Positions 23,010 through 26,934 of a stretch of DNA of 30,706 nt are shown here, piece by piece. Numbering within the stretch: the first letter of the stretch is position 1; each line of letters begins with the position of its first letter. The DNA comes from Bdellovibrionota bacterium FG-1 (GTDB lineage: Bacteria; Bdellovibrionota; UBA1018), in the NCBI GenBank assembly GCA_051382295.1, contig JBBCAW010000123.1, positions 1-30,706 on the forward strand, in the 5' to 3' direction. Below the pieces are notes generated by a model that saw only the letters and a program-made list of their open reading frames with translations, was not told the DNA's origin and did no database searches. The translations under genes and the position numbers were made by a program.

Positions 23010-23081
23010 GATCGGTCTCCCTCCCTCATCTTAAAGTAGAAATGAAAACTCCACACCCGGCAAAATTTTCTATAAAACACC

Positions 23082-23108
23082 TCAACTCCAGGCAGCCTTT
23101 GCCGATAG
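23082..23108 (+). promoter_or_regulatory. sigma28 (FliA) promoter
   Basis: TCAA(23082-85)-N15-GCCGATAG(23101-08), followed by AGGAGG SD and GTG start. Confidence 0.7.
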
Positions 23109-23131
23109 GCAATGATAGGAGGGCCACCTCG

Positions 23132-23425
23132 GTGTCCAAAAAGAAACATAAATTCGACCTCACGACCCTAATACATGACGGCTATCTAAAGGATGGGCAA
23201 ACCCTATTCTTTGTCAGCGACCCCAAAAAGACCTGCAAGGTCACCAAACAACCCAATGGCGAATATAAGGTTATCTTTGGACCTGAAACCATGACCGTTC
23301 ATGCTTTCGCCCAAAAGTGCCTCGGCACGGACCCCCCCGATCACGCATCGAAGTGGGTCCGCACTGAAGAAAATAAAACTTTATATGATTATTGGCATGC
23401 GGAGAATTACGCAAAAGCAGCTTAA
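23132..23425 (+). CDS. Small RAMA/TDBD-like putative nucleic-acid-binding protein (97 aa)
   Basis: GTG start after AGGAGG; LTTLIHDGYLKDGQTLFF...TVHAFA...KWVRTEENKTLYDY resembles the RAMA pattern by eye; ends ENYAKAA. Confidence 0.55.
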   Translation: MSKKKHKFDLTTLIHDGYLKDGQTLFFVSDPKKTCKVTKQPNGEYKVIFGPETMTVHAFAQKCLGTDPPDHASKWVRTEENKTLYDYWHAENYAKAA

Positions 23426-23460: not shown

Positions 23461-23509
23461 ATGAGGCTAGGCGCAATAAAAAATAATTGCGTCTAGCCTC
23501 ATTTTTTTT
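23461..23509 (+). terminator. 17-bp-stem hairpin with T-run, abutting the flagellin promoter
   Basis: ATGAGGCTAGGCGCAAT-N8-ATTGCGTCTAGCCTCAT then a T-run. Confidence 0.75.
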
Positions 23510-23510
23510 C

Positions 23511-23537
23511 TAAAGAGTTTTTTTGGACCGCCGATCA
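23511..23537 (+). promoter_or_regulatory. sigma28 (FliA) promoter of flagellin 1
   Basis: TAAA(23511-14)-N15-GCCGATCA(23530-37). Confidence 0.85.
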
Positions 23538-23543
23538 GTGAAT

Positions 23544-23692
23544 TGTAAGCAGGAATGGGAATCAGGGTCTGCGCCAGGAGGTGCGGATCGGAAGCCCGAA
23601 AAGACTGCCACACGAATGTAGACTCATTCAGGCTATGGATGGCCGGGAAAGCTCTTGCAGCTTTCTGAACTTTAACCTTCATGGAGGAAGGT
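23544..23692 (+). promoter_or_regulatory. Flagellin 1 5' leader with GGA-loop hairpins (CsrA-type sites)
   Basis: Stem-loops 23566-23589 (loop AGGA), 23631-23644 (UGGA), 23675-23692 (AUGGAG, covers SD). Confidence 0.65.
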
Positions 23693-24541
23693 ATGGGACT
23701 GCGGATCAATACAAACGTACCCGCCCTCGTTGCGCAAAGAAATTTGCGTACGACCCGCGCCTCCCTCGACAGAACCCTTGAAAGACTCGCCTCTGGATCC
23801 CGCATCAACCATGCTGGCGACGATGCCGCAGGGTTAGCCATCTCCGAAAGTTTACGCGCCCAAATCCGCGGCCTTGGCATGGCCGAACGGAATGCGCAAG
23901 ACGGCGTCTCACTCGTGCAGGTCGCTGAAAGCGCCATGGGTGAAATTTCCAACCTTTTAATCCGAATGCGTGAACTGGGAGTCCAAGCCTCCTCCGATAC
24001 GATCGGACCCGATGAACGCAAATTCTTAGATCTCGAATTCCAAGAAAACCTTGCTGAAATCGATCGAATCGCCAACAGCACTGAATTTAATCGTGTTCCC
24101 CTACTCAACGGATCTGCTTCGATGTTCGAGGTCCAAGTAGGAACCCGCAATAACCCCGCGGTTGATCGAATCAAATTATTTGATGGTGCCTCGGCCGATG
24201 TCAACGTCGTAGCCCTGGGCCTCAACTTAAGCACGGTAGGCGACAAAGCCTCAGCGCAAAACTCCTTAAGTTCGGTCGATGGGGCACTCCAATCCGTCAC
24301 CTCGATTCGAGCCGAGTTTGGGGCCATGCAAAATCGCCTACAATCAATCATCAATAACCTACAGGTGAGCAAAGAAAATCTGTCGGCGGCCAATTCGCGA
24401 ATTCGGGATGCAGATCTTGCGGAAGAAACGACCGAACTCACGAAAAATCAAATTCTGCAACAGTCAGGCATCTCCGTGCTCGGCCAAGCCAACTCATCCA
24501 CGAAAGCAGCACTGAGCCTCCTCGGAGGGAACTCAGGATGA
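23693..24541 (+). CDS. fliC: Flagellin (short, D0/D1 only) 1
   Basis: MGLRINTN, ERLASGSRINHAGDDAAGLAIS, GAMQNRL, SRIRDAD; start after GGAGG. Confidence 0.97.
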   Translation: MGLRINTNVPALVAQRNLRTTRASLDRTLERLASGSRINHAGDDAAGLAISESLRAQIRGLGMAERNAQDGVSLVQVAESAMGEISNLLIRMRELGVQASSDTIGPDERKFLDLEFQENLAEIDRIANSTEFNRVPLLNGSASMFEVQVGTRNNPAVDRIKLFDGASADVNVVALGLNLSTVGDKASAQNSLSSVDGALQSVTSIRAEFGAMQNRLQSIINNLQVSKENLSAANSRIRDADLAEETTELTKNQILQQSGISVLGQANSSTKAALSLLGGNSG

Positions 24542-24610
24542 CAGGACTTAACCAAAAATTTAAATTTACTGAAGAGATCAATTTAAGGGAGGAACTCTCA
24601 TGTAAAAAAG

Positions 24611-24850
24611 TTTGACCCGAAAGCGAAGGCACGTTGCCTGAGCTCGTTTCCTGGAAAGGGATTACGGCCCGCTCCGCCCAGCCATGATGGTCATGGCGAA
24701 GCGGGCCCAAACCCCGCAGAATCCAGATGTCACAGGTCAAAAAAGTGCTGTCCGCAAGGACAGAAGCGGGCAATAAAGCCTGCGATCAATAACCCAGAGC
24801 AAGGATGCTCACTGGTTCCAAGGTTGGAACCAGACTGTCAAGGAGGATAG
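24611..24850 (+). ncRNA. Highly structured intergenic/leader RNA before flagellin 2 (unclassified)
   Basis: Closing stem TTTGACC/GGTCAAA, internal hairpins, GNRA loops, GGA-loop hairpins. Confidence 0.5.
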
Positions 24851-24854
24851 GCAT

Positions 24855-24869
24855 ATGAACGGAGTCTAG
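24855..24869 (+). CDS. Mini-ORF MNGV* upstream of flagellin 2
   Basis: AGGAGG(24841-46)-8 nt-ATG AAC GGA GTC TAG, 1 nt before flagellin ATG. Confidence 0.5.
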   Translation: MNGV

Positions 24870-24870
24870 T

Positions 24871-25707
24871 ATGGGATTAAGAATTGCTACTAATGTGACT
24901 GCCTTGAATGCTCAAAGGCAGATGGCTGCTACTCGCACTAATTTGGACAGGTCTCTCGAAAGACTTGCCAGCGGTTCTCGAATTAATCATTCGGGTGACG
25001 ATGCCGCGGGTTTAGCGATATCTGAAAACTTGAAAGCCCAAGTCCGAGGAATTAGGCAGGCCAAACGAAATGCCATGGATGGGGTCTCAGTCATTCAGGT
25101 TTCGGAAGGAGGTCTGAACGAAATCTCGAACATGATGGTCCGATTGCGCGAACTGGCCATCCAATCTTCTTCTGATACCATCGGTGATACCGAACGTCAG
25201 TTTGCGGATCGGGAATTCCAGTCGCTCAAGCAAGAAATTGACCGAATCGCCAATGCGACCCAATTTAACGGCACTCCGCTTTTGAATGGGAAATCCGGGA
25301 TCTTTGAGATCCAAGTGGGTACGCATAACAACCCGATCCTCGACCGAATCGTCTATAACGGCGAAAGGTCGGACGCGTCACTCGACGCGCTTAAGCTCGG
25401 GGGAGAGTCGGTGGCCACCAAGCAAGGAGCGCAGCTCAGCCTGTCAGTGATTGACGACGCGTTAATCCGGGTCAATAGTATCCGCGCTGATTTGGGCGCC
25501 ATGCAAAACCGGCTTCAGTCAACGATCAACAACTTGGCCATCAGCGACGAAAATCTGTCATCCGCCAACTCGCGAATTCGCGACACGGACATGGCAGAAG
25601 AAGTCTCCGAAATGACCAAGCAAAACGTCTTGATGCAATCTGGCATCGCAGTGCTGAGCCAAGCGAACCAAACGAACCAAGCAGCTCTTAAACTGTTGCA
25701 AGGTTAA
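24871..25707 (+). CDS. fliC: Flagellin 2
   Basis: Flagellin N- and C-terminal motifs; 278 aa. Confidence 0.97.
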   Translation: MGLRIATNVTALNAQRQMAATRTNLDRSLERLASGSRINHSGDDAAGLAISENLKAQVRGIRQAKRNAMDGVSVIQVSEGGLNEISNMMVRLRELAIQSSSDTIGDTERQFADREFQSLKQEIDRIANATQFNGTPLLNGKSGIFEIQVGTHNNPILDRIVYNGERSDASLDALKLGGESVATKQGAQLSLSVIDDALIRVNSIRADLGAMQNRLQSTINNLAISDENLSSANSRIRDTDMAEEVSEMTKQNVLMQSGIAVLSQANQTNQAALKLLQG

Positions 25708-25745
25708 AAAGTAGGGCGAAGTGAACAGCAAGAAGTATGACTAGA

Positions 25746-26072
25746 GGCTAAATGCAGCTATGCAAATCAAACTGGTGATTCCAATACCCGTCTTTCGGGA
25801 GAGCGCGGCGGCGAAAAGCCCCCGCTCTCTCGAAAGACTCAGTTAGACACCAGGGAGGCCCTTGGATGGAGTGATGAAAGTTTAAAGTTTGTGGAAACGG
25901 TTGGCAGCTCAGACCCGTACGAATGCGCCTGACCCTTTCCCCACAAGTGCAGTTTCTCAGTCGGCTGAGGAACTGTTTAGCCAAAACCGAGTTGCATCAC
26001 AATGCGACTCATTGACCAACGGGGCAAGGAAGCCCGGCCGTCACAAGGAAGCAGAGACGGCTTTTCAAGGAG
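25746..26072 (+). ncRNA. Highly structured intergenic/leader RNA before flagellin 3 (unclassified)
   Basis: Closing stem GGCTAAA/TTTAGCC enclosing a 16-bp hairpin and others; downstream AAGGA-loop hairpins. Confidence 0.5.
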
Positions 26073-26081
26073 ACGAACATT

Positions 26082-26096
26082 ATGAACGGAGTCTAA
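26082..26096 (+). CDS. Mini-ORF MNGV* upstream of flagellin 3
   Basis: AAGGAG(26067-72)-9 nt-ATG AAC GGA GTC TAA, 1 nt before flagellin ATG. Confidence 0.5.
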   Translation: MNGV

Positions 26097-26097
26097 T

Positions 26098-26934
26098 ATG
26101 GGACTGAGAATAGCGACAAATATCACGGCCATGAATGCCCAACGCACGATGGCTGGAACACGTAATAAATTGGATGCAAGCTTAGAGCGATTATCGAGTG
26201 GATCTCGAATTAATCGATCAGGTGACGATGCCGCAGGATTAGCCATTTCAGAAAACTTACGAGCGCAAATCCGTGGGATCCGGCAGGCCAAACGAAATGC
26301 CATGGATGGGGTCTCAGTCATTCAAGTGTCTGAAGGCGGCCTCAATGAAGTATCCAGTATTCTGGTACGATTACGTGAACTTGCGATCCAATCCGCTTCA
26401 GATACCATTGGGGATACTGAACGCGGCTTTGCAGACCGGGAGTTTCAGTCACTCAAACAAGAAGTGGATCGAATCGCCAACGTAACCAACTTTAACGGTA
26501 CTCCGCTCTTAAACGGAAAGTCCGGAATCTTCGAGATTCAAGTCGGTACGAAAAACAACCCGATTTTGGACCGCATCGTCTACAATGGCGAAAGGTCAGA
26601 CGCGTCACTCGACGCACTCAAACTCGGGGGCGAATCGGTTGCGACCAAGCAAGGAGCCCAGCTGAGCCTTTCCGTGATCGACGATGCATTAATCCGGGTC
26701 AATAGCATCCGCGCTGATTTGGGCGCTATGCAGAACCGGCTTCAATCGACGATCAATAATCTAGCCGTCAGCGACGAAAACCTCTCTTCAGCTAATTCTC
26801 GTATTCGAGATACGGATTTTGCCGAAGAAGTCTCAGAGATGACCAAAAACAACATCCTGTTGCAATCGGGTATCTCTGTGTTGAGCCAAGCCAATTCAAC
26901 CAATCAGGCGACGCTCAAATTATTGCAAGGCTAA
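26098..26934 (+). CDS. fliC: Flagellin 3 (close paralog of flagellin 2)
   Basis: Flagellin motifs; 278 aa, long identical peptide stretches with flagellin 2. Confidence 0.97.
   Translation: MGLRIATNITAMNAQRTMAGTRNKLDASLERLSSGSRINRSGDDAAGLAISENLRAQIRGIRQAKRNAMDGVSVIQVSEGGLNEVSSILVRLRELAIQSASDTIGDTERGFADREFQSLKQEVDRIANVTNFNGTPLLNGKSGIFEIQVGTKNNPILDRIVYNGERSDASLDALKLGGESVATKQGAQLSLSVIDDALIRVNSIRADLGAMQNRLQSTINNLAVSDENLSSANSRIRDTDFAEEVSEMTKNNILLQSGISVLSQANSTNQATLKLLQG

Follow-up and report, generated by a model that had tools for sequence, protein, structure and literature searches.

A conserved micro-uORF precedes FliC4-type flagellin genes in Bdellovibrionota and may couple CsrA control to their translation

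We analysed a stretch of 30,706 nucleotides (nt) from Bdellovibrionota bacterium FG-1 (contig JBBCAW010000123.1 of assembly GCA_051382295.1; hereafter the window) in which flagellin genes 2 and 3 are each preceded by a very short upstream open reading frame (uORF). The uORF encodes M-N-G-V, is led by its own Shine-Dalgarno sequence (SD1) and contains the SD of the flagellin gene (SD2). As judged by comparison with orthologs, it is a real and conserved feature of FliC4-type flagellin leaders, and it is apparently unreported: full-text searches, outside which lay supplements and most subscription papers, returned no report of a uORF before a flagellin gene or in Bdellovibrionota. CsrA-gated translational coupling is in our view the best reading of its arrangement, one that we hold with slightly better than even confidence.

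Results

Two short reading frames in the window

A first-pass annotation made from the window alone had described two SD-led MNGV mini-ORFs 1 nt before flagellins 2 and 3 and none before flagellin 1, and the sequence is as described on both counts. A single T separates each uORF stop from the flagellin ATG (24871 and 26098). SD1 is AAGGAGG at 24840-24846 in the flagellin 2 leader, 8 nt 5' of the uORF start codon (uATG), and AAGGAG at 26067-26072 in the flagellin 3 leader, 9 nt 5' of the uATG. The 15-mer TATGAACGGAGTCTA has two sites in the 4.44-Mb genome, both of them these uORFs. This identity carries little weight as evidence, since flagellins 2 and 3 are sister genes (89.6% identity; tree support 0.89); the two copies are not independent, and the test therefore had to rest on orthologs. 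The flagellin 1 leader, which has no such uORF, serves as an internal negative control. The claim that the two leaders share no other obvious similarity does not hold, as both carry repeated CAAGGA motifs beyond a common 18-mer.

Within this genome the pattern is more than chance. A strict rule (GGAGG 4-14 nt before an ATG, 2-10 codons, and a stop -1 to 8 nt before the main ATG) picks out one of 748 SD-led genes, flagellin 2; with GGAG as the SD it picks out three, two of which are flagellins 2 and 3. The genome encodes six flagellins, and its csrA and fliW genes adjoin each other. By gene order and length we take flagellin 1 to be FliC3-type and flagellins 2 and 3 to be FliC4-type: in published lists FliC3 has 282 amino acids (aa) and a C-terminal extension, FliC4 has 277 aa and FliC1 has 274 aa (PMC2791853, Table 1; bioRxiv 10.64898/2026.06.08.730854).

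The uORF is conserved across the phylum

We gathered 444 flagellin leaders, 441 of them on the tree, which are distinct sequences and not independent genomes. They came from relatives whose records are labelled Oligoflexia, Bacteriovoracaceae or Bdellovibrionota, and were collected by flagellin protein similarity except for 40 loci chosen by pattern, which lifts the counts somewhat. A strict call followed the layout SD1-ATG-codons-GGA-GNN-stop-(0-5 nt)-ATG, with ATG, GTG or TTG allowed as the uORF start. By this rule the uORF is present in 169/225 FliC4-type leaders from several classes of the phylum: 101/137 flagellin-2-type leaders of the organism's own order, 3/3 in family f13, 27/28 in f22, and 38/57 in f21 and its neighbours. 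It is also called in 7/16 C3-type leaders, in 1/19 C62b leaders, and in none of 25 C62a or 139 FliC3-type (flagellin-1 clade) leaders. Three further flagellin paralogs (L314, L315 and L338) carry the same form (MTTGD, MFRGD and VIGG, each followed by a stop), which brings the paralog lineages with the uORF to at least four. In the own order, the second FliC4-type copies form a natural decay series.

A gene-blind pattern (GGAGG, 5-15 nt, ATG, one codon, GGAG-NN, TRR, 1-6 nt, ATG) matched 108/401 phylum genomes, and its reversed control matched none; TGG, which the pattern allows, is absent among the matches listed. Of the 40 pattern loci that were fetched, 32 lie before flagellins, 5 at transposase-like protein starts and 3 elsewhere. 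The five (L107, L112, L113, L126 and L135) were rejected as false positives, since the pattern there falls in another frame of a 386-aa transposase-like start (M-P-W-x-E-C); we take this protein to be of the IS481 family. Families f16, f18, f23 and f28 gave no pattern match, and among their inspected leaders only one has a call (VIGG and stop). Six inspected outgroup flagellin leaders have no uORF. A metagenome scan limited to M-x-I-N-[HT]-N flagellin starts (M-x-x-x-I-N-T-N starts lay outside it) gave one match, a Bdellovibrionota-like flagellin. A csrA match was present in 27/29 flagellin-bearing genomes checked; inspected leaders of the other two have no uORF, as in some csrA-positive genomes.

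The source records of family f21 proteins name them B. bacteriovorus flagellin, and genomes with flagellins so named carry MKHGG and a stop before the FliC4-type gene and MKNKY and a stop before the FliC5-type gene, the latter label being assigned from genome position. Under a looser rule applied to this family, an SD-led uORF is found in 28/30 FliC5-type leaders, compared with 3/137 flagellin-1, 0/25 C62a and 0/11 FliC1/2/6-position leaders and 15/747 genome genes. An ATG follows SD1 in 28/30 of these leaders, against 5.4 expected. The stop lies 2-5 nt before the gene in 6/28; the AT-richness of FliC5-type leaders makes it less informative there. In the B. bacteriovorus filament FliC5 is a major and FliC4 a minor component (PMC2791853). 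Since a major type has the uORF too, it is no marker of low abundance, and the role in tuning minor flagellins put forward in the first-pass annotation is too narrow. One C3-group leader (L105, G000:C3, flagellin from 110815, - strand) has an SD-led MKTK and stop, followed in frame by GGA GAT TGA, the usual uORF end; an earlier stop has arisen there, giving the stop-before-SD2 form seen at FliC5-type genes.

The reading frame appears to be under selection

When the uATG is taken blindly as the first ATG 4-14 nt after SD1, it and the GGAG of SD2 are separated by a multiple of three (6, 9, 12, 15 or 24 nt) in 168/169 leaders, and the single exception has lost the stop as well. Among 84 independent tree pairs, 23/24 length changes within the ORF are multiples of three, compared with 8/44 between SD1 and the ATG and 9/41 between SD2 and the main ATG (Fisher p ~7e-12; the pairs share deep ancestry). 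At GGAG+6, 171/186 leaders have a stop triplet (TAA 88, TAG 66, TGA 17, TGG 0), compared with 44/748 other genes and 14/139 flagellin-1 leaders at the same place, and 38/42 changes at this triplet in independent pairs exchange one stop for another. The parsimony minimum is 34 length changes and 52 stop swaps.

Orthologs keeping GGAG alone would, according to the first-pass annotation, point to a duplicated ribosome-binding site (RBS). Instead, 160/225 FliC4-type leaders jointly keep SD1, in-frame ATG and stop, with synonymous stop changes, and 23 have jointly lost all three. Across 176 calls the start is ATG in 170, SD1 spacing is 4-10 nt, and the gap from stop to main ATG is 0-5 nt without overlap. 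Whichever of the three relative frames the uORF occupies (98/48/23), its stop precedes the main ATG, and out-of-frame uORFs without that stop would end a median of 16-48 nt into the gene. Such placement, despite nearby downstream stops, fits re-initiation. On this comparative evidence an SD at working distance, a start and an in-frame stop are all under selection, the mark of a translated regulatory uORF, and we consider it very likely that the uORF is translated.

The peptide MNGV itself is not conserved. Orthologs encode dozens of different peptides (MNGG, MQGG, MFEGD, MTKEG and MSNNTGD among them) whose sole constant is the Gly encoded by the SD, and since the peptide varies freely, the product is not what matters. 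A functional leader peptide of the attenuator or stalling type was ruled out by this diversity and by the absence of conserved residues or regulatory codons. A role for the uORF as a sensor is very unlikely for much the same reason. In such a sensor the state of release factors or tRNAs would be signalled by ribosomes that pause within the short ORF or at its stop, and the peptide or a Gly-X-stop context would be important. Gly is penultimate in nearly all FliC4-type uORFs and TAG makes up 66/171 uORF stops, compared with 6/44 at the same place in other genes, as a sensor might require; yet the Gly follows from the GGAG of SD2, other residues change freely (MNGG, MQGG, MFEGD, MTKEG, MKNKY), all three stops occur, and kin inflate the TAG count. 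Over all clades, TGA accounts for 17/171 uORF stops and for 20 of the 44 in other genes, beside the TAG counts just given.

The same changes bear on the notion that a tandem RBS duplication was kept as two CsrA sites, with ATG and stop as untranslated by-products. The leader in family f21 does read as two CAAGGAGGAU copies with an ATG after each, and GGAGGA-TAA stands alone in some flagellin-1 spacers (14/139). Frame-keeping length changes, stop-to-stop swaps and the joint loss of three elements are difficult to reconcile with a purely RNA-level or neutral role, as is the finding that no stem involves the ATG or stop, and we regard this explanation as highly improbable. Tandem duplication of a hairpin-SD-ATG module would be the simplest history, with its two units still visible in f21; duplication may be the origin and not the present state.

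CsrA-type sites mark both Shine-Dalgarno sequences

ANGGA motifs of the CsrA type lie at 24756, 24801, 24840 and 24859 in the flagellin 2 leader and at 26026, 26045, 26067 and 26086 in that of flagellin 3. Positions 24762-24860 are predicted to fold into a row of small hairpins, of which the SD1 hairpin comes last (z = -5.1; 0/200 shuffles as stable). A high-affinity CsrA/RsmE site is described as a hexaloop hairpin with ANGGA in the loop (PMC4005645), the form predicted for SD1 of flagellin 2 (Table 1). The flagellin 1 SD hairpin is the same module. SD1 of flagellin 3 is weaker as a hairpin, with no stem in the minimum-free-energy fold, and the ACGGA inside the uORF has no stem.

SD1 carries ANGGA in 90/101, 37/38, 3/3 and 6/7 leaders, a match of sequence and structure only; in f22 it takes an AGGAG pentaloop form (22/27). 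The closing pair is C-G in 85 and U-G in 12 of 101 leaders, and in the Bdellovibrio-side clade it is C-G in 36/38 and C-G or U-G in 37/38. Inner stem pairs partly covary above shuffles, in a test that ignores kinship and in which some pairs are weak. ANGGA occurs 2.4-4.2 times per 150 nt in flagellin-1, flagellin-2 and C3 leaders, compared with about 1 in shuffled sequence, an enrichment absent from C62a and C62b leaders. Most leaders of two clades also have ANGGA at SD2, without a stem. From these patterns, binding of CsrA at the leader sites seems likely, and we hold this with considerable confidence.

The first-pass annotation credited each uORF with a better SD than that of the flagellin. 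SD1 is indeed usually predicted to be the stronger across orthologs (69/101, 27/27 and 15/38 leaders, with 16 equal in the last set), but it is itself one of the CAAGGA motifs. The uORF is kept in 11/169 leaders in which SD2 holds no GGAG. A stem around SD2, the ATG or the stop was considered as the cause of conservation and rejected, none being found in orthologs.

The annotation had also placed CsrA on the ACGGA of the uORF. Involvement of CsrA fits the leaders, but its main site would be the hexaloop hairpin of SD1. This matters for the proposal that CsrA is dislodged from the ANGGA at SD2 by uORF ribosomes, which would free the flagellin start for fresh ribosomes. The A of that motif is kept in 80/98 and 38/38 leaders of two clades while the codon containing it changes among Asn, Lys, Gln, His, Tyr and Asp, as displacement would predict. 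The motif is weak in f22 (17/25) and in the C3 group (1/7), however, and with SD1 the better CsrA-type site and SD2 stemless, CsrA is more likely to block the uORF first than to be displaced by it. We therefore consider displacement quite unlikely.

Other features of the window

Table 1. Features of the flagellin region, in coordinates of the window
Feature	Coordinates	Strand	Basis
Sigma-28-like promoter candidate before flagellin 1	23511..23536	+	Pattern match to consensus
Flagellin 1 SD hairpin, AUGGAG hexaloop immediately before the ATG, without uORF	23674..23692	+	Fold; ortholog pair counts
Flagellin 1, 282 aa, FliC3-type with C-terminal extension	23693..24541	+	ATG at 23693; FliC3 label assigned
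Two upstream hairpins in flagellin 2 leader, loops AGGA (CsrA-type) and AGGU (variant)	24797..24833	+	Fold
SD1 hairpin of flagellin 2, 5-bp stem, AAGGAG hexaloop closed by C-G then U-A	24835..24850	+	Fold; ortholog pair counts
uORF before flagellin 2 (M-N-G-V-stop, TAG)	24855..24869	+	Direct sequence; ortholog conservation and frame tests
SD2 of flagellin 2, GGAG within ACGGAG, inside the uORF	24861-24864	+	
Flagellin 2, 278 aa, FliC4-type	24871..25707	+	FliC4 label from gene order and length
Flagellin 3 leader, AAGGAA at 26026 and 26045 in predicted loops, SD1 AAGGAG at 26067-26072	26021..26075	+	Fold
uORF before flagellin 3 (M-N-G-V-stop, TAA), SD2 inside	26082..26096	+	Direct sequence; GGAG rule
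Flagellin 3, 278 aa, recent duplicate of flagellin 2	26098..26934	+	

The relaxed pattern behind the sigma-28-like promoter candidate occurs in 47/112 flagellin-1 leaders, against 1.6 expected from shuffles, and in most C3, C62a and C62b leaders. It is found in 10/57 flagellin-2-type leaders of the Bdellovibrio-side clade and in 1/136 of those in the own order (1.6 expected). The flagellin 2 leader of the window (24542-24870) has one weak candidate, at 24598, and flagellin 2 may be transcribed from the flagellin 1 promoter or with another sigma factor. A terminator-like 17-bp hairpin with a T run (23461-23502) lies just 5' of the flagellin 1 promoter candidate, and a 127-aa ORF (23042-23425) lies immediately 5' of flagellin 1. 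An Rfam search gave 10 weak matches, none at any family's gathering score, and in a PDB search no Bdellovibrio flagellin stood out.

Discussion

The arrangement suggests a mechanism in which the act of translating the micro-uORF matters and the peptide does not. Free CsrA would cap SD1, and probably the weaker ANGGA at SD2 some 20 nt downstream, so that neither start is used. In the B. subtilis literature FliW binds flagellin and CsrA as a partner switch; by analogy, sequestration of CsrA by FliW would open the strong SD1 to ribosomes, which would translate 3-7 residues and reach a stop 0-5 nt short of the flagellin ATG, by then covering SD2. The terminated ribosomes would then re-initiate on flagellin. 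The uORF would in this way be a natural two-cistron loader through which some flagellin paralogs gain a coupling step gated by CsrA. The re-initiation envisaged in the first-pass annotation fits this anatomy: a gap of 0-5 nt is among the spacings at which E. coli constructs couple, and long gaps like those of FliC5-type leaders still coupled in one E. coli study (PMC12548453). CsrA of B. bacteriovorus represses a hag reporter, and the cited text indicates that little is known of its native targets (PMC13443453).

Several observations weigh against coupling. The uATG and main ATG are 15-26 nt apart, a range open to occlusion, and S. meliloti upstream RBSs at such distances occluded main starts in 2 of 3 tests (PMC13285730). 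Neither SD2 nor the main ATG is hidden by a conserved stem (consensus folds of 43 and 12 anchored leaders are empty), and SD2 could therefore function by itself. In 22/28 FliC5-type leaders the uORF stop lies 14-34 nt upstream of the gene, before SD2. FliC4 is a minor filament component. A strict call is lacking in 56/225 FliC4-type leaders, and at 52 own-order loci the uORF is present in 49 first FliC4-type copies and in 24 second copies. On the CsrA side, pair 3 of the SD1 stem is no better than shuffled in the own order (0.50 vs 0.46, the shuffles ignoring relatedness), and ANGGA is unenriched in f22 leaders (1.22 vs 0.90 shuffled).

These points leave room for occlusion, in which the uORF is translated and ribosomes at the stronger SD1 block the flagellin start, damping or capping synthesis after CsrA release. 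The spacing of the starts and the usual strength of SD1 suit it, close pairs of upstream and main RBSs repress in S. meliloti (PMC13285730), and FliC4 is low in the B. bacteriovorus filament (PMC2791853). But in every frame a stop is retained right before the main ATG, whereas the occluding S. meliloti uORFs in that account run 23-37 nt into the main gene; some uORFs persist although SD2 has decayed (11/169); and FliC5-type flagellin, a major component, carries a uORF too. Occlusion thus strikes us as unlikely. Coupling is favoured because the stop is fixed before the gene in all frames, SD1 is stronger, SD2 decay is tolerated and a major flagellin is included, and because there are precedents in glnK and evgL; that the uORF acts positively on flagellin seems to us a little more probable than that it does not.

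In E. coli, CsrA is known to control iraD and evgA by way of a coupled uORF, and CsrA-FliW control of flagellin is also known. The closest parallel is evgL-evgA, in which CsrA sites cover the leader SD and the main SD, the main SD lies inside the leader ORF, and CsrA represses both directly and via coupling, which was shown there (PMC11210196). The evgL stop overlaps the evgA start, whereas the flagellin uORF of 3-7 codons ends 0-5 nt short of it; here the target is a flagellin in a genome with FliW, the layout is kept across a phylum, and coupling is predicted from comparison. At iraD, CsrA likewise represses a short upstream ORF (ORF27, idlP) with a CsrA site on its SD, but there the SD of iraD is reported to be hidden by RNA structure, and stop and start overlap (PMC5574718, PMC7652899); the flagellin uORFs have no conserved hiding structure and their SD2 bears ANGGA. 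Judged by its layout, the flagellin uORF would work like evgLA, but without stop-start overlap and without a hiding structure.

The B. subtilis Hag-FliW-CsrA system shares csrA, fliW and a flagellin leader with GGA hairpins, one of them on the SD, a plan that flagellin 1 fits exactly; the text of those accounts describes no uORF for hag (PMC7652899, PMC13443453), whereas in some paralogs here a uORF stands between the CsrA hairpin and the gene. The 4-aa glnK uORF of S. meliloti matches in having four codons, two strong SDs and starts within 25 nt, and mutating its start lowers output; it differs in its ATGA overlap, in having no CsrA link reported in that text, and in resting on single-species tests (PMC13285730). 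The S. meliloti set is a precedent for coupling and occlusion alike (PMC13285730). Its occluding upstream RBSs match the flagellin uORFs in start distance (15-26 nt), but the overlap with the main gene is absent here.

Synthetic two-cistron cassettes, or bicistronic designs (BCD), follow a related layout with a longer leader. They share SD1, a short leader cistron that holds SD2, and a stop beside the main start (Schoner's SD result, as given in PMC12548453). A BCD is engineered and constitutive, whereas the flagellin uORF is natural and minimal, with CsrA-type sites on both SDs.

One could envision a translational code in the leaders that partly orders a filament built in blocks: FliC3-type genes would read CsrA directly, FliC4- and FliC5-type genes would do so via the micro-uORF, with SD strength and gap setting threshold and yield, and distal types would do neither. 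We offer this tentatively and consider it doubtful. If true, the uORF would act as a bicistronic tuner, natural and as old as the phylum, by which the order of filament subunits and their ratio are set. Apart from any such code, the uORF would add a hidden layer to CsrA-FliW control of flagellin. It is an unusually clean, near-minimal natural uORF, and its roughly 200 variants in length, SD strength and gap across the phylum should be useful in separating re-initiation from occlusion. Because leaders from genomes with B. bacteriovorus-named flagellins carry the uORF, its role is testable by point mutation in a tractable laboratory predator, and it may offer a handle on the question of why the six similar flagellins of B. 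bacteriovorus differ so greatly in amount and order.

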